In this document: positions 3,809 through 24,890 of the stretch, in pieces
Layout: the number at the start of each line of letters is the position of its first letter
How positions within the stretch are numbered: position 1 is the first letter of the stretch
Assembly (NCBI GenBank): GCA_963728205.1
Contig: CAVSIV010000006.1
Location: 160,001-224,000, forward strand
Direction of reading: 5' to 3'
From: an uncultured Chloroflexia bacterium
GTDB lineage: Bacteria; Chloroflexota; Dehalococcoidia; UBA2979
DNA length: 64,000 nucleotides
The notes under the pieces: model-generated
What the model was told of the DNA's origin: nothing
Database searches by the model: none
The model's input: the letters and a program-made list of their open reading frames with translations, nothing else
Position numbers and translations under genes: made by a program

Positions 3809-5020
3809 GTGACCGTCGAGATCCGTCCGATCACCGCCGACGAGCTGGTCGACTACCGGCGCGTGTGGTCCTACGTCTTCGCGGAGAACAGCGTCGACCC
3901 GACCGACGTGAGCGACGACTGGACGCAGCCCGAGTGGACGCTGTGCGCGTTCGTCGACGGCCGCATCGCGTCCACGATGGGCGCCTACCCGTTCACGATG
4001 CGCTGGAACGGCGCGCCGGTCGCGGCCGCCGGCATCACCGCCGTGGGCACGCTCCCCGAGTACCGCCGCCGCGGCCTGCTGCGCAGCGTCATGACGCATG
4101 CGCTGCGCGATCAGCGCGAACGCGGGCAGTCCATCGCGATCCTCTGGGCGAGCATGGGCGCGATCTACCAGCGGTTCGGCTACGGCCTCGCGAGCAGCGT
4201 CGTCCGCTACGACGTCGCGCCGCGCGACGCCGTCTTCCAGCAGCCGGCCGAGCCCACGGGCGGCGTCCACCTCACCCCGCAGGCCGAGGCGCGCGACGTC
4301 ATCGAGGGCGTCTACGCCGAGTACGCCGCGCCGCGCAACGTCATGCTCCACCGCTCGTCCTGGATGTGGGACAACCAGTTCCGCGAGCGCGAGAAGCGAC
4401 GGCGCTACGTCGGCGTCTATCGCGACGGCGACGATCGCCCCTCCGGTTATGTCATCTATTCGACTCGCGAGGAGCCCGTCCACTTCGAGCCGGCGCCCGA
4501 CCAGGTGATGGAGGTGCACGACTTCGTCGCGCTCGACCTCGACGCCTACCGCGGTCTCTGGGCGTACCTGCGGGCGCACGACCTGGTGGCGCGCGTGCAG
4601 ATGGCGGTCCCCGAGGACGACCCCGCGCCGGCGCTGCTGCTCGAGCCGCGCGTGCTCCGCCGCCGCGCCGGCGACGGCATCTGGATGCGCATCGTCGACG
4701 TCGAGCGCGCGCTGCCGCAGCGGCCGTACGGCGACGCCGGTGCGCTCACGCTGCGCGTGCACGACGACGTCTGCGACTGGAACGACGCGACGTTCCGCCT
4801 CGAGACCGACGGCGCGGACACGACGGTCGCGCGCACCGACCGCCACGAGCCCGACCTCGTGCTGCCGGCGCGCAGCCTCTCGATGCTCGCGAGCGGCTAC
4901 GCCTCCGCCACGCACCTCGCGCGCTGGGGCCTCGCCGAGACGCGCGAGTCCGCCTCGCTCCGCCTCGCGGATCGCCTCTTCGCGACGGAGTACCGGGGGT
5001 ACTGCCCGGACGGGTTCTAG
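3809..5020 (+). CDS. Eis-like GNAT acetyltransferase with C-terminal SCP2-like domain
   Basis: VGTLPEYRRRGL acetyl-CoA motif, IYQRFGYG, C-terminal CPDGF; GGAGG RBS before GTG. Confidence 0.88.
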   Translation: MTVEIRPITADELVDYRRVWSYVFAENSVDPTDVSDDWTQPEWTLCAFVDGRIASTMGAYPFTMRWNGAPVAAAGITAVGTLPEYRRRGLLRSVMTHALRDQRERGQSIAILWASMGAIYQRFGYGLASSVVRYDVAPRDAVFQQPAEPTGGVHLTPQAEARDVIEGVYAEYAAPRNVMLHRSSWMWDNQFREREKRRRYVGVYRDGDDRPSGYVIYSTREEPVHFEPAPDQVMEVHDFVALDLDAYRGLWAYLRAHDLVARVQMAVPEDDPAPALLLEPRVLRRRAGDGIWMRIVDVERALPQRPYGDAGALTLRVHDDVCDWNDATFRLETDGADTTVARTDRHEPDLVLPARSLSMLASGYASATHLARWGLAETRESASLRLADRLFATEYRGYCPDGF

Positions 5021-6511: not shown

Positions 6512-9500
6512 TCAGCCCCGGTCGTCCGCCTCGTCCAGCGCGAGGTCGGCGCCGTGCCGCAGCGTCCGCACGGCCACCGCCTTCGCCCAGGCGAACCGGC
6601 GCGGGAACCCCGGCTCGCGCGGCTGCGGGCCGTCGAGCGGCGAGAGCAGCGCCTTGAGCGACCGCTGCCGCGGCGCAGTTGGTCCCAGCCGCCGGTAGAC
6701 CGCGTCGGCCAGCGCGCCGGCGGCGTCGGTCGCGACGAACGCGACGTCCGGCGACTCGGCGAGCGTGAGCAGCGCGCCCGGCGCGTCGCCGGCCGCGGCG
6801 AGCGCGCCCGGCGGCGCGCCGGCCTCGCGCAGCGCGTCCACCACCGGCGCCAGCGCCGGCGACGCGACGACGCACACCGCGTTGCCGGCGAGCAGCGGCG
6901 CCGCCAGCCACCACGCCGCATCGGCGCCCGTCGCGTGCACGAGCCCGAGTCCGCGCGCCGGCCCGAAGCGCAGCTCGTTGTGCTGGCCCGCGACCGGCAG
7001 CGTCGGCAGCGCGCGGTCGAGCTCACGGCGCGCCGACTGCGCGGCGTCGAGCAGCCGTCCCGCCGCCACCGCCTCGCCGCGCGCGCCGAGCAGCGCGGCG
7101 GCGCCCTCCACGACCGCGACGCGACGCTCGAACGGGGCGTCCCATCGCTTCGCGAGCTCCGCCGGCAGCGCGGCGGCGACCGGCGCGGTCGCCGCCGGCC
7201 CGGCGCCCGCGGACGGATCGCCCGCGTCGGCGGCGTCGGCCCGCCGCGTGAACGCCCACAGGTAGTCTGGCCCGCCGGCCTTCGGCCCGGTGCCCGACAT
7301 CCACATCCCGCCGAACGGCTCCACGCCGACGCGCGAGCCGGTGATCGACCGATTCACGTAGATGTTGCCGGCCTCGAGCGCGCGCACCGCGCGGGCCACC
7401 GTCCGCGGGCTGCGCGAGAACACGCCCGCCGTCAGCCCGTACTCCGTCGCGTTCGCCAGGCGGTACGCCTGCTGTTCGTCGTCGAAGGGCACGAGCAGCA
7501 GGATCGGCCCGAACAGCTCCTCGGTGGCCGTCGTCCCGCGCGTCGCGCGCTCGGGCGGCAGCGTCGACGATCAGCGGCGCGAGGTTCAGGTTCTCGGCCG
7601 CCGGCGAGGGGCCGGTGAAGCGGTCGAGCAGCACCTCGCACTCGCCCCGCGCGCGGTCGGCGGCGGCGAGCAGCCGCATGTCGCGTCGCGGTCGATCACG
7701 GGGTTCACCTGCGTCGACGGGTCGTCGGCGCGCCCGACGTGCAGGCTGCGCGCGGCCTCGACCAGCCGCCGCCGCAGCCGCGCGAACACCGGCCGCTCGA
7801 CGTAGACGCGCGACGCCGCGGAGCACCGCTGGTTCGCGTGCCCGAACGCCGACGCGAGGATGCCCGACACCGCCTCGTCGAGGTCGGCGTCGGCGAACAC
7901 GATCACCGGGTTCTTGCCGCCCATCTCCGCGACGAGCGCCTTCACGCCCCCGCCGGGCGCGCCCGGCGTGCCGCCCCCGGCGAGCTCGATGCCGGCCACC
8001 GTCGCGTGCAGCGCGGTGCCCACCGCGCGCGAGCCGGTGAACGCGACCATCGCGACCTCCGGGCTCTCCGCCAGCGCGGCGCCCACCGTCTCGCCGCGAC
8101 CCGGCAGCCACGTCACGACGTCGCGCGGCACGCCGGCCTCGTGCAGCAGCGCGACCAGCCGCCCGGCGATCAGCGGCGTCTGCTCCGCGGGCTTGAGGAT
8201 CGCCGTGTTGCCGCACACCAGCGCCGCGCTCGTCATCCCGCACGGGATCGACAGCGAGAAGTTCCACGGCGGGATCACCGCGACGACACCGCGCGGCGCC
8301 AGCGCGTCGCCGTGCCGCGCGAACAGCGCCGCGGCCTGCATCGCGTAGTAGCGAAGGAAGTCGATCGTCTCCTCGACCTCCGCGTAAGCGGCTGCGCGGT
8401 CGCGACCGCCCTCGTGCACGATCCACGCCGCGAACGTGTGGCGGCGCTCCCACAGCAGGTCCGCCGCGCGGCGCAGCGCGGCCGCTCGCTGCGGGGCGGG
8501 CGTCGCGGCCCACGCCGGCAGCGCGGCGCCGGCCACGGCGATCGCGCGCGCCACCCCCGCGCGCCCCGCGAGCTCGACCTCGCCGATCGGCGGCCCGTCG
8601 GGGTGCGACGGGCTGTGCACCGCGACCGTCTCCGCCGCCGGCTCCCGCTCGCCGACGATCACGAGCAGCGTCCGGCCGCCCCACTCCGCGCGCGTCGCCG
8701 CGAGCGCCGCCTCGAACGCCGCGCGGTGCTCGGCGCGGAACCACGGCGCGGACGGCGCGCGCTGGAAGTCGCCCGCGTCGCGCGGCTCCTCGGGCGGCTC
8801 CGGCTCGCCGTGCGGCGGCGGCCGCAGCAGCTCGTCGTCCGATACGCCGCTGCGGCTCTGCAGCAGGAACCCCGCCTGCGACGAGTTCTCGAGCACGCGC
8901 CGCACCAGGTACGCCATCCCCGGCAGCAGCTCGCCGACCGGCACGTAGTCGCGCGCCACCCAGCCGAGACGCGCGAGACCCTCGCTCATGCCCTCGGCGG
9001 TGCGATAGAGCGTCTGGTGCTCGAGCGCCGCCGCCGGCAGCCCGTGCGCCTCGGCCAGCGCATGCGCTACGGCGTGCGACCGGGCGTTGTGGCTGCCGAC
9101 CGCCAGCCGCAGGCTCGGCCACGCGCCGAGCAGCACCGGCAGCACGCGCTCGAACTGCGCGTCGGTGTCGCCCTTGCGCGCGAACACCGGCGACGGCCAC
9201 TTCGCCTCGCGCGCGACAATCGTCTCGTAGTCCCAGTACGCGCCCTTCACGAGCCGCACCTGGAACGGCGCGCCCCGCTCGCGCGCGAAGTCCGCGACCG
9301 CGGCGGCGTGCGTGTCGGCGTCGCGCAGGTACGCCTGCACGACGACCCCGGCGCCCTCCCACGCGCCGAACCGCTCGCCACGCCCGAACGTCGCGCGGAA
9401 CACGTCCCAGGTGAGGTCGCGGTAGGCGTACTGCTCCATGTCGACGGTGATGCCGACCCCGGCGTGCTCCGCCGCCTCGCGAATCGCCTCGAGCGCCGGT

Positions 9501-10145: not shown

Positions 10146-10378
10146 GTGCCCTCCAGGGCGAGGATAGCGGCCGGCCCGAGGCGAGCAGGGCGGCGTCAGC
10201 CCCTGTTTCCGTCGAGCGCGCCGGTCCGGCATGCGCCGCCGCACCGCCGCCGCCGCGCGCAACGCGTCGTGCCGTCCTGCTGCCGCGTCGGCCCGCGCCG
10301 CCCGGAAACCGGGTGCTCACGCCACCGGCGCGCCGCGGGGCGCCTCGTACACTGACCACCGCACGGAAAGGACCCCTG

Positions 10379-11396
10379 ATGGAATATCGCAACCTCGGAC
10401 GCACCGGGGTGAAGGTCAGCCCCCTCTGCCTCGGCTGCATGATGTTCGGCGGCCGCACGACCCCGGACGACTCGTACGCGATCATCGACCGCGCGCTCGA
10501 CGCCGGCATCAACTTCATCGACACCGCCAACGTCTACAGCCGCGGCCGCAGCGAGGAGGCCGTCGGCGAGGCGCTCAAGCGCAACGGCAAGCGCGACCGC
10601 GTCGTCCTCGCCACGAAGGTCCACGGCCAGCATGGACGACGACGACCCGAACGCGCAGGGGCAATCAGCCGCCGCCACATCATCGAGCAGTGCGAGGCGA
10701 GCCTCACGCCGCCTGCAGACCGACTACATCGACCTCTACCAGCTCCACCGGCCCGATCCCGACATCGCCGATCGACGAGACGCTGCGGGCGCTCGACGAC
10801 CTCGTGCGCGCCGGCAAGGTCCGCTACATCGGCACGAGCACGTTCGCCGCGTGGCAGGTCGTGGAGGCGCTCTGGGTCGTCGAAGGAGCTCGGGCTGAAC
10901 CGCTTCGTCTGCGAGCAGCCGCCGTACAACCTGCTCGACCGGCGCATCGAGCGCGAGCTGCTGCCGATGGCGCAGACCTACGGCATGGCGACGATCCCGT
11001 GGAGCCCGCTCGCCGGCGGGCTGCTCACCGGCAAGTACCGCCGCGGCAACGCCGCCGCCCGAGGACAGCCGCTACGACGCGACGAGCAACCCCATGCGCC
11101 AGCGCCGCATGAACGAGCACGTCTTCGACGTCGTCGAGGCGCTGGAGCCGTCGGCGCAGGAGAAGGGCGCGACGCTGGCGCAGTTCGCGCTGGCGTGGGT
11201 GCTGCACCAGCCCGGCGTCACGAGCCCGATCATCGGCCCGCGCACGATGGAGCAGCTCGAGGACAACCTCGGCGCGCTCGAGGTGGAGATCACGGACGAG
11301 GACCGCGAGCGCATCGACCACGCGTCGGCGCCCGGCCGCACGATCGCGCCGTTCTACGAGGCGCCGTTCGGCCCGCACCCGCACCGCGTGCTGTAG
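10379..11396 (+). CDS. Aldo/keto reductase, split by several frameshifts
   Basis: [54 protein letters not shown] in alternating frames. Confidence 0.88.
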
Positions 11397-13974: not shown

Positions 13975-14191
13975 GCGCGCCACCGCCCCGCGCCCGCCGC
14001 CCGGACCGCAGCGCAGCGCGCCGCCCGCAGCGGCGGCGGATACGCCGCCGACAGACCGCGGGCGCCCGCCTGCGACCGCGCCCCGCGGCCCGCGCTCCGC
14101 GCCTGGTTCGCGGTCGCCTCCCGCGCCGACGCCGCCCTACGATCGACCGCCGCCGGCGCTGCGCCAGCCGCCCACCCCGAAGGAGCCACGC

Positions 14192-15145
14192 GTGCCTCGC
14201 CTCTACCCGCCCATCGAGCCGCACGCGCACGGGATGCTCGACGTCGGCGACGGCCACTCCCTCTACTGGGAGGTCTGCGGCAACCCGGCCGGCAAGCCCG
14301 CACTCGTCCTCCACGGCGGCCCGGGCTCGGGCTGCACCCCCGGCGCACGCCGCTACTTCGATCCCGCCGTCTACCGCGTCGTCCTCTTCGATCAGCGCAA
14401 CTGCGGCCGCAGCCTGCCGCATGCCAGCGACCCCGTCGTGGACCTCGCCACCAACACCACCGCGCACCTGCTGGAGGACATCGAGCGGCTGCGGCGCCAC
14501 CTCGCCATCGACCGCTGGCTCGTCTTCGGCGGCTCATGGGGCGCGGCGCTCGCGCTCGCGTACGCCGAGCGACACCCGGCGCGCGTGTCGGAGCTCGTGC
14601 TCACGGGCGTCGCGACCGGCCGCCGCGCGGAGACCGAGCTGCTGACGCGCGGCCTCGGCCGCCTCTTCCCCGACGCGTGGACCCGCTTCGTCGCCGGCGT
14701 CCCCGAGAGCGAGCGCGACGGCGATCTTGCCGCCGCCTACGCGCGGCGGCTGCGCGAGCCGGACCCCGCCGCGCGCGACCAAGCCGCGCGCGACTGGTGC
14801 GACTGGGAGACCGCGATGCTCCCGACCTCGCCGCCGCTCGCGCGTTACGAGAGCCCGCAGTTCCGGATGGCGTTCGCGCGCATCGTCACGCACTACTGGA
14901 GCCACGGGTCGTGGCTCGACGAGGGCGCCGTGCTCCGCGACGCGGGTGCGGTCGCGGGCATCCCCGGCGTGATGGTCCAGGGCGTGCTCGACCTCGGCAA
15001 CCTGCTCGGCACGGCCTGGATGCTGGCGCGGGCCTGGCCGGCCGGCGAGCTCGTGCTGGTGGACGACGCCGGCCACAACTCGAGCGACACGGGGATCGCC
15101 TCGGCGCTGGTCGCTGCGACGGACCGCTTCGGGGCGCGCCGGTAG
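14192..15145 (+). CDS. pip: Prolyl aminopeptidase (proline iminopeptidase)
   Basis: LHGGPGSG, FDQRNCGRS, FGGSWG, AGH. Confidence 0.92.
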   Translation: MPRLYPPIEPHAHGMLDVGDGHSLYWEVCGNPAGKPALVLHGGPGSGCTPGARRYFDPAVYRVVLFDQRNCGRSLPHASDPVVDLATNTTAHLLEDIERLRRHLAIDRWLVFGGSWGAALALAYAERHPARVSELVLTGVATGRRAETELLTRGLGRLFPDAWTRFVAGVPESERDGDLAAAYARRLREPDPAARDQAARDWCDWETAMLPTSPPLARYESPQFRMAFARIVTHYWSHGSWLDEGAVLRDAGAVAGIPGVMVQGVLDLGNLLGTAWMLARAWPAGELVLVDDAGHNSSDTGIASALVAATDRFGARR

Positions 15146-15197
15146 GCGCGTCCGCCGCAGCAGGGCCGCCGACGCCGCCCCCTCCCCCACGCACCGA

Positions 15198-15948
15198 CCG
15201 CGAGCGCGGCGAAGCGCTGCCTCTGCACCGATCGCGCGCCGACGGAGCCGCGCCCGGCGTCAGCCGACGCGGCGGAGGAGGTCCAGCCCGCGGCGGCGGC
15301 AGCCGTCGCGGGCGCGAGCGCGGCAACTCACTGCCCGGCGTCAGCCGACGCGGCGGAGGAGGTCTAGCCCATGGCGGCCTTCAGCCGCCATGGGCGCGAG
15401 CGCGGCAAAGCGCTGCCTCTGCACCGACCGCGCGCCGACGGAGCCGTGCCCGGCGCCAGCCGACGCGGCGGAGGAGGTCTAGCCCGCGGCGGCGGCAGCC
15501 GTCGCGGGCGCGAGCGCGGCGAAGCGCTGCCTCTGCACCGACCGCGCGCCGACGGAGCCGCGCCCGGCGTCAGCCGACGCGGCGGAGGAGGTCCAGCCCG
15601 CGGCGGCGGCAGCCGTCGCGGGCGCGAGCGCGGCGAAGCGCTACCTCTGCACCGACCGCGCGCCGACGGAGCCGCGCCCGGCGCCAGCCGACGCGGCGGA
15701 GGAGGTCCAGCCCGCGGCGGCGGCAGCCGTCGCGGGCGCGAGCGCGGCAACTCACTGCCCGGCGTCAGCCGACGCGGCGGAGGAGGTCTAGCCCATGGCG
15801 GCCTTCAGCCGCCATGGGCGCGAGCGCGGCAAAGCGCTGCCTCTGCACCGACCGCGCGCCGACGGAGCCGCGCCCGGCGCCAGCCGACGCGGCGGAGGAG
15901 GTCTAGCCCGCGGCGGCGGCAGCCGTCGCGGGCGCGAGCGCGGCGAAA
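15198..15948. repeat. Tandem array of 7 hairpin-containing units (BIME-like)
   Basis: Core GCCGACGCGGCGGAGGAGGTC at 15263, 15344, 15459, 15573, 15687, 15768, 15883 (spacings 81,115,114,114,81,115). Confidence 0.9.
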
Positions 15949-15960
15949 CTCAGCGCGCGG

Positions 15961-16410
15961 CTAGATCGGTCCGTGCACGCGTCGGCGCTCGTCGCGCGGC
16001 TGCTCGGCCACGAAGCGCTCGATGCGGTCTTGGGGAAACTCGTCGCGCGTGGTCGCCAGCAGGCGGCGCGTCCACACCGATGGCAGCCGGCGCAGCTCGG
16101 GGAACTCGCGACGCAGGATGCCGGCGGAGTAGCGCTTCAGCCGCTCCGCGATCGTCGCCGGCGCCAGGTGCGGCGGCGCGTCCACCGTCACCACCACGTA
16201 GTCCTCGCCGCTGCGCACGTGCACGACGCGCGCACCGATGCCGCGTGCCGCCTCCGCGAACAGCTCCTCGGCGCGCTCGAGCAGCGCGCCATGCAGGAAG
16301 CGCTTGCGACGGCGCGTCGGCCAGACGAGGTAGTAGCGCAGGTCGCCGACCGCGTCCGTCTCATAGACGGAGCGGTCCGTGAACGGAACGTCACCGGCGG
16401 GGTCGGACAT
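15961..16410 (-). CDS. IS200/IS605 TnpA (Y1) homologue lacking catalytic residues
   Basis: LRYYLVWPTRRRK, PP..A...LK..S..LRREFPEL..LPSVWT match TnpA; the HUH site reads DYVV and the YxxxQ site reads FVAEQ. Confidence 0.85.
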   Translation of the reverse strand: MSDPAGDVPFTDRSVYETDAVGDLRYYLVWPTRRRKRFLHGALLERAEELFAEAARGIGARVVHVRSGEDYVVVTVDAPPHLAPATIAERLKRYSAGILRREFPELRRLPSVWTRRLLATTRDEFPQDRIERFVAEQPRDERRRVHGPI

Positions 16411-16416
16411 CGCTCC

Positions 16417-18578
16417 CTATCCCTGGCGCGCCCTGGGCTTCCGCGGCGGCCGCTCGGCGCGCACCGGCGGCGTCTTTGATTGCTGCAGCTCCAGCAAATC
16501 ACCAATCGGGATGTGGCAATAGATCTCGTGATCGGGGGCGTTCGGCCCCACCTGGCGCGGCGGGGGCTGCTCGTCGCAGATCGCGCCCAGGTAGCGCGGG
16601 CAGCGGTCGGCGAAGAAGCAGCCGGTGAAGGCCTCGCGCAGGGTCGGCACCGCGCCCTCCAGCCGGATCGGCGAGTGCTCGGCGTCCGGGTCGGGCACCG
16701 GTGCGGCCGAGAGCAGCGCCTCCGTATACGGCGCGTACGGCGGGCGCAGCAGCGCCTCCGTCGGCCCGGACTCGGCGACGTGGCCCGCATACAGCACGAG
16801 GATGTGGTCGGACACGTAGCGGACCACGCCGAGGTCGTGCGTGATGAAGAGGTACGACGTCCCGTGCTCGCGCTGGTGCTCGGCGAGCAGGTTCAGCACC
16901 TGCGCCTGCACGGAGACGTCGAGCGCGGAGACGGCCTCGTCGGCGATCACCAGGTCGGGGCTTGCGGCGAACGCCGTCGCCAGCGCGACGCGCTGCTGCT
17001 GCCCCCGCTCAGCTCCGTCGGCAGCCGGTCGAGGTACGACGGGTCGAGCCCCACCGACTCCAGCAGCGCACCCGCCCGCTCGCGCGCGTCTTCCGAGCCT
17101 ATCCCGGTGAGCTTCTTCAGCGACCGGATCAGCGCGTGCCGGATCGGGAGCTTCGGGTTGAGCGACGCCGTCGGGTTCTGGAACACCATGCGGATCGCCG
17201 CGCGCTGCTCCCACGAGCGGTCGGCGACGTCCGGCGCCAGGTCCTCGCCGCGCAGCCGCACCGCGCCGCGGTTGCGCCGCTCCAGGCCGACCACCGCCCG
17301 CGCCGTGGTCGACTTCCCCGAGCCGCTCTCGCCGACGATCCCCAGCGTGCGCCCCTGCGGCACGTCGAAGTCAATATCGACGACGGCGCGCACCGGTCGC
17401 CGCGTGGGTGGCCCCCAGAAGACGAACCGCTTGGTCCGCCCGCCGTAGAACTGCCGCAGCCCGCGCACCTCGAGCACCGGCTCCGGTGCCTCCGCGGTCT
17501 CGCGCCGCGGCCGGGGCTCGGGCCGGCCCCAGATGTCCGGGCTCACCTCGTCGGCGAAGAAGCACCGCGCGTCGTGGCCCGGCTCCGTGTAGACGTCGAT
17601 CGCCGGGTGCGACGACTCGCACTCCTCGCGCGCCAGCGGGCAGCGCGTCGCGAACAGGCAGCGGTCGCCGGCCGCCTCCGATGCCTCGTACACGCTGCCG
17701 GGGATGCTGCGCAGCTTCGGCACGATCCCGGTGCCCGTCACGGGCGCCGGCACGCAGGTCAGCAGCCCCTGCGTGTACGGGTGACGCGGCTGCCGAAACA
17801 GGTCGCGCACGCCCGCGGTCTCCACCGTCTCGCCGGCGTACATCACCACGACGCGATCCGCGACGCGCGCAATCACCCCGAGGTTGTGGCTGACGAAGAG
17901 AATGCCCGCGTTCACGCGCTCCTTCAGCTCGGAGACGAGGTCGAGGATCGTCGCCTCGGTGGTGACGTCGAGCCCGGTCGTCGGCTCGTCCATGATCAGC
18001 AGGTCGGGGTCGCACGCCAGCGCCATCGCGATCACGACGCGCTGCTGCTGGCCGCCGCTCAGCTCGTGCGGAAAGCGCCGGCCGATCCGCTCCGGCGTCG
18101 GAAGGCCCACGCTCGCGAACAGCTCCGCCGCGCGCGCCTGCGCTTCCGACTTGCTCCGGTCCAGGTGCATCTGCACCGCCTCGGCAAGCTGGTCGCCGAC
18201 GCGCATCGTCGGGTTCAGCGACGTCACCGGGTCCTGGTAGACCATCGCCATGCGGTTGCCGCGCAGCGTCCGCAGCTCCGATTCCGAGAGCGCCGTGAGG
18301 TCGCGCCCCTCGAACTCGATCGTCCCCTGCACCTCGGCGGTGCCGGGGAGGTAGCCCATCATCGCGTAGGCGACGGTGGACTTGCCGCAGCCCGACTCGC
18401 CGACGAGGCCGAGCACCTCGCCGCGGCGGACCTGCAGCGTCGCCTCGCGCACGGCCTGCACGGTGCCGCGGGGCGTGTAGAAGGTCACGGACATGTTGCG
18501 GACGTCCAGCAGCGGCGCATCGGACGCTGGGGGCGTGGCGACGCCGGTCTGGCCGGACTCGGGTGCGGTAGTGGTCAT
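16417..18578 (-). CDS. Fused Dpp/OppD-F ABC ATPase, one frameshift near 17000
   Basis: GESGCGKS and GESGSGKS; LSGGQQQR; frame breaks in the G run of the second LSGG. Confidence 0.9.
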
Positions 18579-19519
18579 GGCTGTGGCTCGCTGTTCGGGA
18601 GTGCATGGGCCTGGCGGATGCCGTCGGCCAGCAGGTTGACGCCGATCACCAGCGACGACACCGCCGCCGCCGGGACCAGCGCCACGAGCGGCGCGACGCT
18701 GACGAAGTTGCGGCTCTCGCTGATCATGCGTCCCCAGTCCGGCGACGGCGGTTGCACGCCGAGCCCGAGGAATCCGAGGGACGCGGCCAGCAGGATCGCG
18801 TAGCTGAAGCGGACCGACGCCTCGACGCCGAGCACCGGCACCGCGTTCGGCAGGATCTCGCGGAACACGATGTACCAGCCCGGCTCGCCACGCAGCCGCG
18901 CGTTCTGCACGAACTCCTTCGTCTTGATGTCGAGCACAGCGCCGCGCATCACGCGCGCCACGCGCGGCATGAACACGACGCCGATCGTGATCACGATGTT
19001 GGTGCGGCTCGGGCCGAGCGTGCTGATCACGAGCAGCGCCAGCAGCAGCCCCGGGAACGACATCAGGCCGTCCATGATCCGCATCACGACCTCGTCGGTG
19101 CGGCCGCCCTTGTAGCCGCTGCTCATCCCGACGAGCGTGCCGCTCGCGATGCCGAGCAGCGTGCCGAGCAGCGATACGGCGATGATGGACGACGCGCCGG
19201 ACATCACGCGGCTGAGCAGGTCGCGCCCGTACTGATCGGTGCCCAGCAGGTACTGCGTCGTCGGGCCGCTGAAGCGCAGGATCTTGCCGGCGGCCGTGCG
19301 CTGGAAGGCGTCGGGCGAGTAGGGCGCGAGCGCCGGGCCGAAGACCGCGAGCACGAGGTGGAGCGTGACGAGCGCCAGGCCGATGCGGCCGGCGTTCGTG
19401 CGCAGCGCGAAGCCGATCTCGCGGCGCAGCACGCGGCCGGCGGTGGCGACGGCCCGCGCCGCGCGTGCGAGCGGCGAAGGGATCGCGGTGCCGATGGCGG
19501 GAGCAGGTGGGGTGGTCAT
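18575..19519 (-). CDS. Peptide/nickel ABC permease (DppC/OppC-like)
   Basis: LLGTDQYGRD, LGFLGLGVQPPSPDWG. Confidence 0.92.
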   Translation of the reverse strand: MTTPPAPAIGTAIPSPLARAARAVATAGRVLRREIGFALRTNAGRIGLALVTLHLVLAVFGPALAPYSPDAFQRTAAGKILRFSGPTTQYLLGTDQYGRDLLSRVMSGASSIIAVSLLGTLLGIASGTLVGMSSGYKGGRTDEVVMRIMDGLMSFPGLLLALLVISTLGPSRTNIVITIGVVFMPRVARVMRGAVLDIKTKEFVQNARLRGEPGWYIVFREILPNAVPVLGVEASVRFSYAILLAASLGFLGLGVQPPSPDWGRMISESRNFVSVAPLVALVPAAAVSSLVIGVNLLADGIRQAHALPNSEPQP

Positions 19520-20463
19520 CAGGAGTACCGGATCCTCGGGTTGAGCGCGGCGTAGAGCAGGTCGCCGGCCAGGTTGCTGAACGCGTACACGGCGGCGATC
19601 AGCAGCGCCAGCGCCTGCAGCAGCGGCACGTCGCGCTTGATGATGCCGTCGAGCAGCAGCCGGCCCAGCCCCGGGTACGAGAACACCGTCTCGACGATGA
19701 TCAGCCCGCCGAGCATGTAGCCGATGTTGATCGTGACGACGCTGATCGTCGGCAGCATCGCGTTGCGCAGGACGTGCTGCATGATCACGCGCCGCATCGG
19801 CAGGCCCTTGAGGATCGCGGTGCGCACGTAGTTGGTGTGCATCACCTCGATCACGTTGGCCCGCGTCATCCGCATGATGTAGCCGAACAGCACCGCCGTG
19901 AGCGTGACCGCCGGCAGCACCAGCACCTTCGGCTCGTTCAGCGGCGTCTTCCCCGGCGCCAGCAGGCTCGACGACGGGAACCAGCCGAGCCCCGACGCGA
20001 ACACCATGATCAGCAGCACGCCGGTGACGAACTCGGGCAGCGAGATGCCCATCAGCCCCGACATGCTCGCGACGCGGTCGAACAGCGAGTCCTCGCGCAC
20101 GCCCGCCCACACGCCGACCGCGATCGCCGTCGGCACCGTGATCACGAACGCGAAGGACGCGAGCAGCACGGAGTTGAACAGCCGGTCCTTGATCAGGCTC
20201 GCCACCGGCACCGACCGCGAGAGCGACGTCCCGAAGTCGCCGTGCAGCGCGCCGCCGATCCACTGCAGGTAGCGCACGTACATCGGCTGATCGATCCCGA
20301 GGCGGTGCCGCAGCACCTCGACGGCGCTCGGCGTCGCGCCCTGGCCGAGGATCGCCTGCGCCACGTCGCCGGGCAGGATCTCGGTGATCGCGAAGATGGC
20401 CATCGAGATGACGAACAGCGTGAGCACGATGAGGCCGAGTCGAACGACCAGGAATCGCACCAC
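19519..20463 (-). CDS. Peptide/nickel ABC permease (DppB/OppB-like)
   Basis: LPGD, GDFGTS, YVRTAILKGL, VETVFSYPGLG. Confidence 0.92.
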   Translation of the reverse strand: MVRFLVVRLGLIVLTLFVISMAIFAITEILPGDVAQAILGQGATPSAVEVLRHRLGIDQPMYVRYLQWIGGALHGDFGTSLSRSVPVASLIKDRLFNSVLLASFAFVITVPTAIAVGVWAGVREDSLFDRVASMSGLMGISLPEFVTGVLLIMVFASGLGWFPSSSLLAPGKTPLNEPKVLVLPAVTLTAVLFGYIMRMTRANVIEVMHTNYVRTAILKGLPMRRVIMQHVLRNAMLPTISVVTINIGYMLGGLIIVETVFSYPGLGRLLLDGIIKRDVPLLQALALLIAAVYAFSNLAGDLLYAALNPRIRYS

Positions 20464-20520
20464 GACAGGCCTCCTTCCGCCGCTGCGCGGCTCCCGGCCA
20501 CGCGACGGACGGACAAAACG

Positions 20521-20565
20521 GGCGGACCTCCTCGCCGCCGGCGGGCGACGACGAGGAGGTCCGCC
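20521..20565. terminator. Intergenic hairpin after the SBP gene (terminator or mRNA stabiliser)
   Basis: GGCGGACCTCCTCG...CGAGGAGGTCCGCC inverted repeat, followed by TTTT on the minus strand. Confidence 0.6.
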
Positions 20566-20579
20566 GAATCAGATCGTGG

Positions 20580-22208
20580 CTAGGCGTCCTTCAGGTACGC
20601 ACCGTAGACGAGCAGCCAGTTGCCCGGGTGCGGCGTGATGCCGCCCACGCGGTCGCGCAGGCCCACGGTGACCGGCAGGTGCACGGGGATCGGCCGGATC
20701 GCGAGGTCGATCAGCATCTTCTGCACCTCGGCGTACGACTGCTTGCGCTCTTCCTCCGTCTGGCCGCGCGCGCCCTTGATCAGGCCGTCGAGCTTGTCGC
20801 TCTTGTAGTGCGACTCGTTCCAGTCGGCGTCCGAGAGGTAGACGATCGACAGCGCCTGGTCGTCCGGGCGGCCGTTCCACTGCACGCAGGTGAACGGCTT
20901 CTTCAGCCACACGTCGGACCAGTAGCTGTCCTCCGGCGACTGCACGATGTCGACGTTCACGCCGCCCTGCGCGGCGCCCTGCTTGAACGCCGTCGCGTGC
21001 TCGACCATGCCCTGCGCGACGGTGCTCGTGTAGAGCGTGAGGTCGAGGCTGTCGTGGCCGGCCGCGGAGAGCAGCTGCTTGGCCTGCTTCGGGTCGTACT
21101 CGCCCCACTTCTGGCCGTCCCACCACATCGGGTCGTCCGGCACGAACGGGTGGTCGTTCCCTTTGCCGCCGAGGCCGTAGAACGCGGCGTCCAGGATCGT
21201 GTCGCGGTCCTGCAGCAGCTGGATCGCCGTGCGCACGCGCTGGTCGTCGAACGGCTTCTCGTCGCTGAACATCGAGAGCGTCAGGTAGCCCGGGCTCGTG
21301 ACGTTGAGGACGTTCGTCTTCGGCGCGGCGTTCACCTGCTGCACGTCCGCCGGGTCGACCGGGAACAGCACGTCGATCTGGCCGCTCTTCAGCGCCTCGC
21401 TGCGCTGGCTGGGGTCGGGGATGAAGTTGGCGACGACGCCGTCCGGGTAGATCCCGTCGGCGCCCCAGTAGTCCGGCCAGCGCTTCCACGTCCCGCGCGT
21501 GCCGGAGTCGTACGACTCCATCGTGTACGGGCCCGTGCCGTACTCGCCGGTGTTGAGCTTCGCCGGGTCGACGTCCGACGGGAGGATGCGGCCCTGGTAC
21601 AGCGAGAGCGTGTCCGGCAGGAACACGTTCGGCGCGTCCAGCGTGAACTTCACGGTGCGGTCGTCCTGCGCCTCGACCTTCGTGATGGTCGAGAGCGGCG
21701 CCGCGGCCGCCGACGCGGTCTTCGGGTCCTTCAGGCGGTTGATCGTGTAGACGACGTCCTCCGCCTTGAAGTCCTTGCCGTGGTGGAACTTCACGTTCTC
21801 GCGCAGGTGGAACACGTACTCGCTGTTGTCGCCGTTCGGCTCCCACTTCGTCGCCAGCATCGGGCGGAGCGAGAAGTCCTCCATGCGCTGCACGAGGTTG
21901 TCGTAGTGGAAGAGGCTGATCGTGGCGTCGGCCGTGGAGAGGCTGAGCGCCGGGTCGAGACCCGCGTTGATTGAGACCAGGCCCAGCGTGAGCGTGCCGC
22001 CGCGCTTCGGCGTGCCCGTCGCGCCCGCCGCCGCCGTCGACCCGCCGGCGGCGGGCGTGCCCGTCGCGCTGCCGCCGCTGCCGCAGCCGATCAGCGCCGC
22101 GCCGGCGAGGCCGGCGCCGCCGACGGCCGCCCCCCGCAGCACCCCGCGGCGCGAGATGCGCGCACGCATGCCGCGCGTCCAGTAATTCGCATCGTTCTGT
22201 CGATCCAT
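20580..22208 (-). CDS. Family-5 ABC solute-binding lipoprotein with Tat signal
   Basis: ISRRGVL twin-Arg, LIGC lipobox, LRENVKFH, GTGPY. Confidence 0.92.
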   Translation of the reverse strand: MDRQNDANYWTRGMRARISRRGVLRGAAVGGAGLAGAALIGCGSGGSATGTPAAGGSTAAAGATGTPKRGGTLTLGLVSINAGLDPALSLSTADATISLFHYDNLVQRMEDFSLRPMLATKWEPNGDNSEYVFHLRENVKFHHGKDFKAEDVVYTINRLKDPKTASAAAAPLSTITKVEAQDDRTVKFTLDAPNVFLPDTLSLYQGRILPSDVDPAKLNTGEYGTGPYTMESYDSGTRGTWKRWPDYWGADGIYPDGVVANFIPDPSQRSEALKSGQIDVLFPVDPADVQQVNAAPKTNVLNVTSPGYLTLSMFSDEKPFDDQRVRTAIQLLQDRDTILDAAFYGLGGKGNDHPFVPDDPMWWDGQKWGEYDPKQAKQLLSAAGHDSLDLTLYTSTVAQGMVEHATAFKQGAAQGGVNVDIVQSPEDSYWSDVWLKKPFTCVQWNGRPDDQALSIVYLSDADWNESHYKSDKLDGLIKGARGQTEEERKQSYAEVQKMLIDLAIRPIPVHLPVTVGLRDRVGGITPHPGNWLLVYGAYLKDA

Positions 22209-22403
22209 GGGACTTCCCTCCGTGGTGCCCGCGTACGACGGCTCGCGTGAGCGGTCGCACCTGCCGCCGAACGGACAGTGGGGAGCCCGGTCGTGGTGGA
22301 CGGCGGCTGCGGGCGGGTTTTCCGCACCTTACCGAAATCTCGCAGTTTTGTCTTCCTCGCCATGTCTATAGACGAATTCTCGTAGATGCCGCCGCGCGTC
22401 GTG

Positions 22404-22432
22404 TTCACCCGGCCATTGCGAGCGCGTACCAT
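22404..22432 (+). promoter_or_regulatory. Putative sigma70 promoter of the ABC-F gene
   Basis: TTCACC-17 nt-TACCAT. Confidence 0.45.
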
Positions 22433-22482
22433 GCCCGCGTTCGCACGGCCCCCACGCCGCGCGGCACACGTCGAGGAGCCCG

Positions 22483-22494
22483 ATGACTCGCTAG
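22483..22494 (+). promoter_or_regulatory. Leader micro-ORF MTR*
   Basis: GAGGAG-cccg-ATG ACT CGC TAG in the 5' leader of the ABC-F gene. Confidence 0.6.
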
Positions 22495-22647
22495 CCCCGG
22501 GGCGATCCGCGAACGCGACTCCGACCCGTCCCCGGGTCCGGACCACGCTCGTGCCCCGGTGCGCATCGGCCCGCCGCGCCGACCTCCCGCACCCCCTCGC
22601 TCGCCCCGCACCGCATCTCGCCGCGGCCGCGACTGCTCGGGGTCCAC

Positions 22648-24354
22648 ATGCCATCAGCCATCCAGGCCATTGCCATCACGAAGGCCTTCGGGCCGCGCAT
22701 CGTGCTGCGGGGCGTGTCCCTCGTCGTCAACGCCGGCGAGACGCTCGGGGTCGTCGGGCCGAACGGCAGGGGCAAGACCACGCTGCTGCACGTGCTCGCG
22801 GGCACGCTCGCGCCCGACGCGGGCCGGGTCGAGGTCGCGGCGGGCGCGCGCGTCGCGCTGCTCGCGCAGGGCTACGCCGGCCGCGAGGCCGACCCGGTCG
22901 GCGCGCTGTTCCCGGCGCTGTTCGGCGACGCGAGCGACGCCGGCGCCGCGCGTGCCGCCGCGCCCGAGGCGCGGCTCGCGGCGCTCGGCGCAACGCTCGC
23001 GCGCGAGCGCGACCCCGCGGCGCTCGCCCGCGCCGCCGAGGCCTACGACGCGCTGCTCCGCGAGATCGAGGCCGGCGCCGCGGCCGCCGCGGCCGGCCCG
23101 CCCGGCGACGCCGACCCCGTCGCCGACGCCCGCGCCGCGCTCGGGCTGCGGCCCGTGGACGCCGGCACGCCGGCGCGCGACGTCTCGGGCGGCGAGCTCG
23201 CGAAGCTCGGCCTGCTCGACCTCGTCGCGCGCCGGCCCGACGTCCTCCTGCTCGATGAGCCGACGAACCACCTCGACCTCGCCGGCGCCGAGTGGGTGGA
23301 GTCGCTGATCGACGGCTTCGCCGGCCCCGTCGTCGTCGTGTCGCACAATCGCGCGCTGCTCGACGCGGTGTGCGACGGCATCCTCGACCTCGACCCCGCG
23401 GCCGCGGACGGGCCGCCCGCCGTCTTCCCCGGCGCCTACTCCGACTACGCCGCCGACCGCGCACGGCGCGTCGCGGAGCAGTGGGCCGCCTATGGGCGCC
23501 AGCAGCGCGAGGAGCGGCGGCTGCGCAAGGAGATCGCGGCGGCGGAGACGCGCGGGCGCGGCCTCGAGCGCCGCTTCGTGCGCGCCGCGACGAACCGGCC
23601 GTCGATCAAGATCGCGCGGCGCGCGACGACGCTGAAGGCGCGGCTCGAGCGTCGGCTGACGTCGGGCGAGCACGTCGAGCGCCCGGCGAAGCCGGCTGCG
23701 GGGCTCGGCGGCGGGTTCGCCGCCGGCGAGCGGTCCGCGTCGCGCGTGCTGGCGCTCGAGGGCGTCGCACTCGACGTCGCCGGCCGCCGCCTGCTCGAGG
23801 CGGCGAGCCTCGTCGTGCGGCGCGGCGAGCGCGTCGTGCTGATGGGCGCGAACGGGAGCGGCAAGAGCACACTGCTGCGCGCCGTGCTCGGCGAGCACGC
23901 GCCGGCGGCGGGACGGGTCGTCGTCCCGCCGTCGGTGCGCGTCGGCTACCTGCCGCAGGAGCAGGTCGTCGATGCCGCGGCCGACGGTGCGACGCCCGTC
24001 GACGTCCTGCGCCGGGCCGCGCCGGCGGGCCGGCCGCTGTCGGAGGCCGACGCCTACAACTACCTGCACCGCTTCCTGTTCGGTCACGACCAGGCGCGCG
24101 CGCCGCTGTCACGTCTCAGCTACGGCGAGCGCCGGCGGCTGGCGCTGGCGCGGCTCGTGCTCGGCGGCGCGCACCTGCTGCTGCTCGACGAGCCCACGAA
24201 CCACCTGGATCTGCCGGCCCGCGAAGCCTTCGAGCAGGCGTTCGACGGCTTCGACGGCGGCGCGCTCATCGTCACGCACGACCGCTACTTCATCGAGCGC
24301 TTCGCCGACGTCGCGTGGTCGATCGAGGAAGGCCGGCTCGTGCCGGTGCTGTAG
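22648..24354 (+). CDS. ABC-F family ATPase, possible ribosome-protection type
   Basis: Two NBDs (GPNGRGKT, GANGSGKS), LLDEPTNHLD twice, long helical linker, no TM helices. Confidence 0.92.
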   Translation: MPSAIQAIAITKAFGPRIVLRGVSLVVNAGETLGVVGPNGRGKTTLLHVLAGTLAPDAGRVEVAAGARVALLAQGYAGREADPVGALFPALFGDASDAGAARAAAPEARLAALGATLARERDPAALARAAEAYDALLREIEAGAAAAAAGPPGDADPVADARAALGLRPVDAGTPARDVSGGELAKLGLLDLVARRPDVLLLDEPTNHLDLAGAEWVESLIDGFAGPVVVVSHNRALLDAVCDGILDLDPAAADGPPAVFPGAYSDYAADRARRVAEQWAAYGRQQREERRLRKEIAAAETRGRGLERRFVRAATNRPSIKIARRATTLKARLERRLTSGEHVERPAKPAAGLGGGFAAGERSASRVLALEGVALDVAGRRLLEAASLVVRRGERVVLMGANGSGKSTLLRAVLGEHAPAAGRVVVPPSVRVGYLPQEQVVDAAADGATPVDVLRRAAPAGRPLSEADAYNYLHRFLFGHDQARAPLSRLSYGERRRLALARLVLGGAHLLLLDEPTNHLDLPAREAFEQAFDGFDGGALIVTHDRYFIERFADVAWSIEEGRLVPVL

Positions 24355-24461: not shown

Positions 24462-24890
24462 CGCGCGGGCGGCGGTCGCCGCCCGTCATATCGGCGGCGT
24501 GTCTGCCGCCGCTTGCCCACGCGGGTTTCGGGCGCGCCGCCCGTCACATCGGCGGCGTGTCTGCCGCCGCTTGCCCGCGCGGGGTTCGGGCGCGCCGCCC
24601 GTCACATCGGCGGCGTGTCTGCCGCCGCTTGCCCGCGCGGGGTTCGGGCGCGCCGCCCGTCACATCGGCGGCGTGTCTGCCGCCACTTGCCCGCGCGGGC
24701 GGCGGTCGCCGCCCGTCATATCGGCGGCGTGTCTGCCGCCGCTTGCCCGCGCGGGGTTCGGGCGCGCCGCCCGTCACATCGGCGGCGTGTCTGCCGCCGC
24801 TTGCCCGCGCGGGGTTCGGGCGCGCCGCCCGTCACATCGGCGGCGTGTCTGCCGCCGCTTGCCCGCGCGGGGTTCGGGCGCGCCGCCGCC
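24462..24890. repeat. Tandem array of 7 REP-like units of 56-58 bp
   Basis: ATCGGCGGCGTGTCTGCCGCC at 24490, 24548, 24606, 24664, 24720, 24778, 24836; inverted copy at 24361. Confidence 0.92.

Follow-up and report, generated by a model that had tools for sequence, protein, structure and literature searches.

In an uncultured Chloroflexia bacterium (Genome Taxonomy Database (GTDB) lineage Bacteria; Chloroflexota; Dehalococcoidia; UBA2979), a gene standing directly beside a peptide ATP-binding cassette (ABC) transporter operon encodes what appears, from sequence comparison, to be a domesticated, catalytically inactive descendant of the Y1 transposase TnpA of the IS200/IS605 insertion sequences (ISs). 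The gene lies in a stretch of 64,000 nucleotides, here called the window (GenBank assembly GCA_963728205.1, contig CAVSIV010000006.1, positions 160,001 to 224,000); its product is designated TnpA*, and the genome to which the window belongs is G000. That TnpA* is a selected, noncatalytic host protein is very probable. A bolder proposal, to which somewhat less than an even chance is given, is that TnpA* regulates the adjacent operon, whose first gene encodes a family-5 solute-binding protein (SBP; SBP_bac_5), through an inverted repeat upstream of that gene. Nucleic-acid binding by TnpA*, the repeat as its target, and regulation and its sign are what we infer from the comparative data laid out below.

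15961 to 16410, minus strand: gene of TnpA*, a 149-residue homologue of IS200-type Y1 TnpA, with an ATG start and a TAG stop.

TnpA* matches the Pfam Y1_Tnp profile at 61.9 bits (cut-off 23) over positions 2 to 121 of 121, that is, 120 of the 121 positions, and the NCBIfam equivalog model for the IS200/IS605 transposase at 68.3 bits (cut-off 55); Y1_Tnp is its sole Pfam match at E ≤ 1, and no helix-turn-helix (HTH) domain is present. The top sequence match among solved structures is the TnpA of ISHp608 (2a6m/2vhg; phmmer E 7.6e-13), with further matches to two Sulfolobus IS200 transposases and to ISDra2 TnpA. In the phmmer alignment with the ISHp608 protein, 'DYVVV' of TnpA* stands opposite 'DHIHI', and both histidines of the HUH motif are gone: H64 is replaced by Tyr and H66 by Val, so that the region reads Y71-V72-V73. 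At the nucleophile, 'ERFVAEQ' stands opposite 'KQYIENQ', with Tyr127 replaced by F133 and the Gln retained, and 'YYLVW' stands opposite 'YHIVW', turning YH into Y26-Y27. The LRREFPEL segment is still present, and the protein is basic (25 Arg, isoelectric point (pI) 9.8), with an Arg-rich surface. Because both HUH histidines are lost, TnpA* is, as judged from these residues, no longer able to coordinate metal, and because the Tyr has become Phe, it is by the same evidence no longer able to form a 5'-phosphotyrosine link. The available text of He et al. (2013, PMC3597680) reports that IS608 TnpA is inactivated by mutation of H64, H66 or Y127, and that the Y127F protein still makes a DNA complex of wild-type stability.

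An earlier reading made from the letters of the window (the sequence-only reading) had described the frame as intact and alignable along Y1 TnpA, had singled out the changes DHVH to DYVV, Tyr to Phe and YHxVW to YYLVW, and had observed that LRREFPEL was kept; the profile matches and the ISHp608 alignment uphold all of this. Its description of the surroundings holds equally. The start codon lies 6 nt past the stop of the ATPase reading frame (ending at 16417); 13 nt separate the stop codon from a tandem hairpin array at 15199-15947, where about 12 had been given; and the codons are host-like, with a G+C content at third positions (GC3) of 0.91 vs 0.93-0.98 in neighbouring genes. No tnpB was detected either, the TnpB zinc ribbon profile (PF07282) being unmatched across the 4.1-Mb G000 assembly, which is 89% complete. 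IS ends flanking the gene were not recognized, and no search aimed at the left and right ends was made.

The losses sit within an otherwise well-preserved TnpA fold. An AlphaFold2 model of TnpA*, built from an input alignment of 100 sequences, has a mean pLDDT of 89.7 and a pTM of 0.79, and places the C-terminal helix holding F133 with high confidence. Foldseek returned 29 matches in the Protein Data Bank at E ≤ 0.001, and all matches listed are TnpA chains of IS608, IS200 or ISDra2. Ranked first is 2vju_B (E 1.2e-10); 2fyx_A superposes with a root-mean-square deviation of 1.8 Å and template modelling (TM) scores of 0.72/0.82; and the match to 4er8, the structure of a repetitive extragenic palindrome (REP)-associated tyrosine transposase (RAYT), is weak (E 2.8e-3, TM 0.48). 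Across the TnpA* clade, the scaffold residues of active TnpAs are retained at Y26, W30, R35, D70, K92, R100, E102, F103, P104, W113 and Q137, Arg has been gained at positions 33, 34, 93, 139 and 142-144, the pI ranges from 9.8 to 10.7, and the Arg count from 21 to 25.

The clade itself carries the argument for selection. Eleven homologues (P0002-P0012; 51-86% identity) were recovered, 8 by a word-indexed search and 3 more by an exhaustive search of representatives; all 11 carry D-Y-[VL]-[VIT] together with the Phe, and 10 of the 11 carry the YY. F133 is invariant throughout the clade, as are Y71, D70 and Q137, and 56 positions are invariant among the nine members that were aligned. In a maximum-likelihood tree, the 12 rows of the clade form one group (SH-aLRT 98); this tree covers 95 of 156 aligned hits, namely the first 95 by id with residues at the three catalytic columns. 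A gap in search score, from 2e-35 (P0012) to 9e-21 (P0013) in a library of 1.84 billion proteins, separates the clade from its nearest neighbours, and in the representative library it makes up four well-separated clusters at 50% identity. For the five genes with DNA context, namely those of the window, L019 (a 352-kb metagenome contig whose copy is, at 67% identity, the closest relative of TnpA* with DNA context), G007 (locus L015), G021 and G023 (locus L017), all reading frames are intact, and the ratio of nonsynonymous to synonymous divergence (dN/dS, Nei-Gojobori) is 0.11-0.42 in 10 of 10 pairs, ratios that are rough because dS (0.8-1.6) is near saturation, with a proportion of synonymous differences (pS) of 0.50-0.66. 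The checks put forward by the sequence-only reading thus fell out in its favour: HUH and Tyr are lost together in the orthologues, dN/dS is below 1, the predicted structure recovers the TnpA fold with TnpA structures for all matches listed, and synteny, treated below, holds at four of the five loci, with the gene at one or the other end of the operon. Its central claim of exaptation and not decay is borne out by the conservation of the clade, purifying selection, single copy number and linkage to host genes.

These data bear directly on the view that TnpA* is a neutrally decaying IS200 relic whose frame has stayed open by chance. Degenerate motifs are indeed common among Y1_Tnp representatives in metagenomes, with only 36 of 156 aligned hits keeping the catalytic H, H and Y, and the gene is patchily distributed. 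The available text of Quentin et al. (2018, PMC6006769), the main phylogenomic survey, sets aside HuH-less or Y-less sequences as probably nonfunctional. A relic is nevertheless barely credible: the same replacements recur in all 12 clade members, even at 51% identity, the dN/dS values, the 56 invariant positions and the conserved synteny all run counter to neutral drift, the five frames are intact even though the G000 assembly is frameshifted elsewhere, and at a dS of 0.8-1.6 the members are not recent copies of one another.

The wider family shows that catalytic loss is frequent. At least one catalytic residue is gone in 120 of the 156 nearest Y1_Tnp clusters, and all three are gone in 48 of the 156 aligned hits, 12 of these 48 being the TnpA* clade; the replacements of the first HUH His by Tyr and of the Tyr by Phe recur in many separate branches (P0013-P0158), and the inactive states require at least 20 changes on the tree. 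Other selected lineages may exist. The recurrence of the His-to-Tyr change in many other lineages, together with the invariance of Y71, D70 and Q137 in the clade, could also be taken to mean that TnpA* is still an enzyme with a rewired site, for example with Y71 or Y27 as nucleophile assisted by D70 and Q137, that cleaves or joins single-stranded DNA (ssDNA) or RNA. This is very improbable, as both metal-binding histidines are lost, such a site is without precedent in the literature searched, and the gene is single-copy with no sign of mobility.

The gene is rare. It was found in 4 of 99 genomes of the host's GTDB family, in four genera, and in 0 of 3 congeners of the host; a class sample gave 3 of 401 genomes, all of the host's family, and a phylum sample 1 of 401, which is G000 itself. 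There is one copy each in G000, G007, G021 and G023, no class-1 IS200 TnpA was detected with the TnpA* query in these four genomes, and scans of genome contigs and of metagenome contigs found one TnpA* locus each. Among plasmids, the sole tblastn match is a Deinococcus IS200/IS605 tnpA at 32.5% identity. Protein atlas matches are to generic 'Transposase IS200 like' clusters only, and a search for longer proteins found no fused forms among 3392 candidates, which is weak evidence. A C-terminal tail of 20-100 residues extends the proteins P0006, P0008 and P0009 and those of G007 (L015 8636-9121) and G023 (L017 4447-4935), carrying at or before its end the motif VEVRRLPPL, or RLLPEIA / QRLPEIA; TnpA* of the window lacks the tail, whose conserved motif may be a docking peptide.

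What ties the gene to host physiology is its neighbourhood. In the window, the following genes lie upstream of it on the same strand.

20580 to 22208, minus strand: family-5 solute-binding protein, SBP_bac_5 (Pfam, 258.8 bits), first gene of the operon.
19519 to 20463, minus strand: ABC permease 1, BPD_transp_1 and its N-terminal domain (Pfam).
18575 to 19555, minus strand: ABC permease 2, BPD_transp_1 (Pfam).
16417 to 18578, minus strand: fused double ABC ATPase of the peptide/nickel Opp/Dpp type, with two ABC_tran and two oligo_HPY domains (Pfam).

The TnpA* gene is co-oriented with an operon of this composition (SBP, permease, permease, fused ATPase) in 4 of the 5 loci with DNA context, in two arrangements. 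In the window and L019, the order on a single strand is SBP_bac_5, two permeases, fused ATPase and TnpA*, whereas in G007 and G023 TnpA* comes first, followed after about 200 nt by the SBP, the two permeases and the fused ATPase. The SBPs of L019, G007 and G023 are 69-78% identical to one another; the window SBP is about 49% identical to these three, the same distance at which it stands from the TnpA*-less operon of G470. That the gene is joined to such divergent operons, and in two arrangements, would be difficult to account for if no function linked them. The junction of ATPase and TnpA* is also spanned by short metagenome contigs from salt marsh and soil, which come from relatives with about 90% identity. 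The fifth locus, that of G021, has no ABC operon; one flank of TnpA* there holds a universal-stress-like frame (called by eye, not by Pfam) coming after a caa3 CtaG gene, the other a convergent DUF2179 gene and a P-type ATPase, and the G021 genome has no close SBP homologue at E ≤ 1e-60. No HTH regulator is common to the TnpA* neighbourhoods, the only one seen being of LacI type, 4 kb away in G007.

A second element accompanies the gene in these operons, an AT-rich inverted repeat of the form GTCT-N16-AGAC.

Window, 22350 to 22373, unstranded: the repeat, 133-156 nt upstream of the SBP start; on the minus strand it reads GTCTATAGACATGGCGAGGAAGAC.
L019, from 1926: the repeat, GTCTATAGACAGGCAGAAATAGAC.
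G007 (L015), 9192 to 9215: the repeat, GTCTGTAAGGTATAGTTTACAGAC.
G023 (L017), 4338 to 4361: the repeat, GTCTGTAGCGTATGGTTTACAGAC.

Each of the four ABC-linked loci has exactly one such repeat, always about 120-155 nt upstream of the SBP, which in the window places it about 6 kb from the TnpA* gene, at the promoter end of the operon. Eight similar operon loci without TnpA*, from three genera, have none (in one of these, L027, the upstream part is rich in N), a contrast of 4 vs 8 that overstates the support because few independent lineages underlie it. The half-sites covary, being GTCTGTA/TACAGAC in G007 and G023 vs GTCTATA/TATAGAC in the window and L019. The window repeat includes the perfect palindrome GTCTATAGAC (22364-22373), which occurs once in the 4.1 Mb of G000; by calculation from base composition about 0.5 occurrences are expected per genome, so that this uniqueness alone is not significant and the conserved position counts instead. 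Among 455 GTCTRT sites in G000, the window repeat is the only convergent pair within 30 nt, and the repeat form of G007 and G023 occurs in each of these two genomes at this site alone (a single palindromic place, counted on both strands), with a control pattern giving 0. In G021, where the operon is missing, 11.9 kb of sequence holds four copies of TGTCTAC, and all of them precede the TnpA* start by no more than 320 nt; the cluster was equalled in 0 of 20000 shuffles, and the background in 145 kb of loci is 8 copies, these four included. Folded as ssDNA, the L019 and G007 sites form hairpins with 9-bp stems (z about -3.1 vs shuffles). G023 has a called sigma-70-like promoter whose -10 (TATGGT) falls at the centre of the repeat, and G007 has TATAGT at the matching position. 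Two further features were observed near these elements. An 11-nt near-palindrome, GTCTCATAGAC, lies at 16358-16368 in the 5' part of the TnpA* frame, where it encodes an N-terminal part of the protein without protein-level conservation; it is probably a chance occurrence, as about 1.2 GTCT-N2-4-AGAC sites are expected by calculation per 64 kb. The L019 leader has, past the inverted repeat and ahead of the SBP start, a terminator-like hairpin with a T-rich tail (2009-2028), which could be an attenuator.

In the mechanism proposed, TnpA* would bind GTCT-N16-AGAC, with TGTCTRY as half-site, upstream of the SBP, the repeat being recognized either in duplex form or as a hairpin, extruded or transcribed. 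The effect on the operon would most likely be repression or gating of transcription, and where TnpA* is the last cistron, as in the window and L019, feedback autoregulation would result.

Several points weigh against this regulatory proposal. All comparative support is drawn from a single bacterial family, in which no more than 3-4 lineages are independent, the distribution is patchy (4 of 99 family genomes, 0 of 3 congeners, and none outside the family in the samples), dS is near saturation, few lineages stand behind the 4-vs-8 contrast, and the palindrome would be expected about half as often as it occurs. G021 shows that the gene can survive where there is no such operon. The distal half-site of the window repeat is degenerate (GAAGAC), ssDNA folding is weak at the G023 site (z -1.76) and not above shuffles at the window site (z -0.59), and the scan placed a promoter over the repeat at a single locus of the four (G023), with none called in the window, L019 or G007. 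In the window, moreover, the ATPase changes from frame -3 to frame -2 at 17001/17004, inside the second LSGGQ, as judged by tblastn of the L019 ATPase, and a metagenome contig over 16988-17198 aligns to the window with one gap; the frameshift may be an assembly error, or the operon may be dead in G000. An assembly error is plausible because an aldo-keto reductase at 10313-11396 is also split, across three frames. The repeat itself appears to resemble GntR-type operators. Known TnpAs bind imperfect ssDNA hairpins with a guide tetranucleotide, and binding to duplex palindromes of fixed spacing is not known for them. A fixed-spacing palindrome thus departs from the TnpA substrates described so far, and the repeat could belong to an unlinked conventional factor.

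This last point leads to the alternative, unlikely though substantial, that TnpA* is conserved and domesticated and yet does not regulate the operon through the repeat. It might be a general binder of ssDNA or RNA hairpins, at replication forks, mRNA 3' ends or leaders, or a protein partner of the transporter ATPase, with the repeat belonging to an unlinked transcription factor. According to the available text of PMC5027513, TnpAs do recognize hairpins in ssDNA and work at replication forks, and the gene has been kept in G021 without the operon; the 6-nt gap and close translational coupling to the ATPase in the window, and the docking-like tail motif (...RRLPPL / ...RLPEIA) of some clade members, also speak for this alternative. 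The G021 locus also tells the other way, however, since the TGTCTRY half-site accompanies the gene there in the absence of the operon. No repeat is found in the eight operons that lack the gene, and a position at either end of the operon suits a regulator better than a stoichiometric subunit.

In three of those eight operons, all of genus g18, Rfam identifies cyclic di-AMP (c-di-AMP; ydaO) riboswitches, at 81-96 bits, directly upstream of the SBP.

L020, 8056 to 8195: c-di-AMP riboswitch (Rfam).
L021, 5371 to 5509: c-di-AMP riboswitch (Rfam).
L022, 5404 to 5541: c-di-AMP riboswitch (Rfam).

Rfam found nothing in the other five TnpA*-less loci or in the TnpA*-positive leaders, and nothing at gathering score in the window from 14000 to 24000, where the one sub-threshold match was ncS035 (26.4 vs 79 bits). 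A cobalamin riboswitch, suspected by eye in the leaders of TnpA*-less operons, was ruled out, Rfam assigning these as c-di-AMP riboswitches. It is conceivable, although this extension is more doubtful than the regulatory proposal itself, that TnpA* fills the leader position held by the c-di-AMP riboswitch in three related operons and so would be a TnpA counterpart of the oppF-associated TldR, to which we return below.

The sequence-only reading had looked to a different target, immediately downstream of the gene.

15199 to 15947, unstranded: array of seven tandem ~73-nt units, separated by linkers of 41 nt or 8 nt.

It suggested that TnpA* binds the hairpins of this array or REP-like hairpins, as a regulator or as a dominant-negative inhibitor of IS200/REP mobility. 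The array lies between the convergent genes of TnpA* and an alpha/beta hydrolase, ends 13 nt from the TnpA* stop, and consists of units that each contain a GC-rich hairpin, of which there are two variants related by compensating changes. G000 is moreover rich in REPs: it holds 66 tandem arrays (Tandem Repeats Finder, period ≥ 40, at least 2.5 copies), many of which use another hairpin, the dominant one in the genome, whose loop is GTGTCT and which has 144 matches; some of these arrays flank a RAYT-like gene. The window has repeat-rich examples at 24477-24887 and 2640-2776. Six other Y1_Tnp genes in G000 are class-2 and RAYT-like, with intact 'NHVH' and 'RYV..Q', and one of them is preceded by an array. 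The pentamer TGTCT in the loop of the dominant hairpin is also the core of the half-site proposed for TnpA*, perhaps by coincidence. Against these points, no tandem array stands beside the homologues in L015, L016 and L019; the hairpin pattern of the array is confined to that array (5 of 5 matches), with related units at a few other places; and its units fold no better than shuffles (z -0.3 and -0.6). With 66 arrays in the genome and none beside the homologues scanned, the adjacency is best regarded as a feature of the repeat-rich G000 and not of TnpA*, and the array is probably functionally unrelated to it. As for the dominant-negative role, no class-1 partner was detected in the four genomes with the TnpA* query, and poisoning of RAYTs through heterodimers is unlikely because these are class-2 and distant from TnpA* (TM 0.48 for 4er8). 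Neither part of the suggestion fared well, and binding of the array or of REP-like hairpins is accordingly rated improbable.

Other neighbours of the TnpA* genes fit peptide uptake, hydrolase or peptidase genes being found nearby in three loci: an M20 peptidase in G023, an M19 dipeptidase in L019 and, in the window, the hydrolase.

14192 to 15145, convergent with the TnpA* gene: alpha/beta hydrolase (Abhydrolase_1 and Serine aminopeptidase S33).

Also in G023, at 3 kb from the TnpA* locus, a Peripla_BP_2/FecCD/ABC_tran transporter is preceded by a cobalamin riboswitch (47.2 bits; L017 8187-8344).

Set against known systems, TnpA* resembles the TnpAs of ISHp608, ISDra2 and the Sulfolobus IS200 elements in domain and fold over its full length, and it keeps their scaffold residues, the LRxEFP segment and the C-terminal helix at the nucleophile position. 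It differs from active IS200/IS605 TnpAs in lacking both HUH histidines and the Tyr, and from these elements more broadly in being single-copy, with no tnpB match in G000, and in standing in a host operon with conserved synteny. Domestication of IS200/IS605 proteins is known for TnpB, in Cas12 and TldR, and for class-2 TnpA, in the RAYTs, which are still catalytic; a 2017 study by Bertels et al. is said to treat domesticated RAYTs. Like the RAYTs (TnpA_REP), TnpA* is of Y1 transposase descent, single-copy and retained by the host, and in G000 a repeat array adjoins its gene. In contrast to RAYTs, whose HUH and Tyr stay intact, TnpA* has neither; it is class-1-like, with the weak match to 4er8, and not class-2; and whereas RAYT genes have their cognate REP/REPIN sequences on their flanks from host to host, the array beside TnpA* is one-sided and, among the homologue loci scanned, present in G000 only.

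The closest parallel is TldR, which the available text of PMC10705468 describes as a nuclease-dead TnpB encoded after oppF, with a guide that targets the oppA promoter. Like the oppF-associated TldR, TnpA* is of IS200/IS605 origin, has lost its catalytic residues, is under selection and is linked to host genes; in the window and in L019 its gene comes after the ATPase gene of a peptide ABC operon, and its proposed target lies at the SBP promoter, at the opposite end of the operon. The two differ in descent and mode of action, TldR being derived from TnpB with its RuvC domain and guided by RNA, whereas TnpA* is TnpA-derived, about 150 residues long and without a known guide. They differ also in their hosts, which belong to different phyla, and in the kind of evidence: binding and repression have been established experimentally for TldR, while for TnpA* we infer them by sequence comparison. 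A conserved, catalytically dead class-1 TnpA of IS200 type is undescribed in the literature searched, although the supplementary files of papers could list such sequences.

If TnpA* does bind the repeat, the TnpA fold, which recognizes ssDNA hairpins, would prove reusable as a gene regulator, and a peptide transporter operon would have captured an IS200/IS605 protein a second, independent time. The core of about 130 residues would constitute a new small nucleic-acid-binding scaffold, and the HUH-less Y1_Tnp sequences of metagenomes would deserve re-examination. With 120 of the 156 nearest clusters catalytically deficient, TnpA* could then be the first characterized member of a wide and overlooked class of TnpA-derived nucleic-acid-binding proteins.

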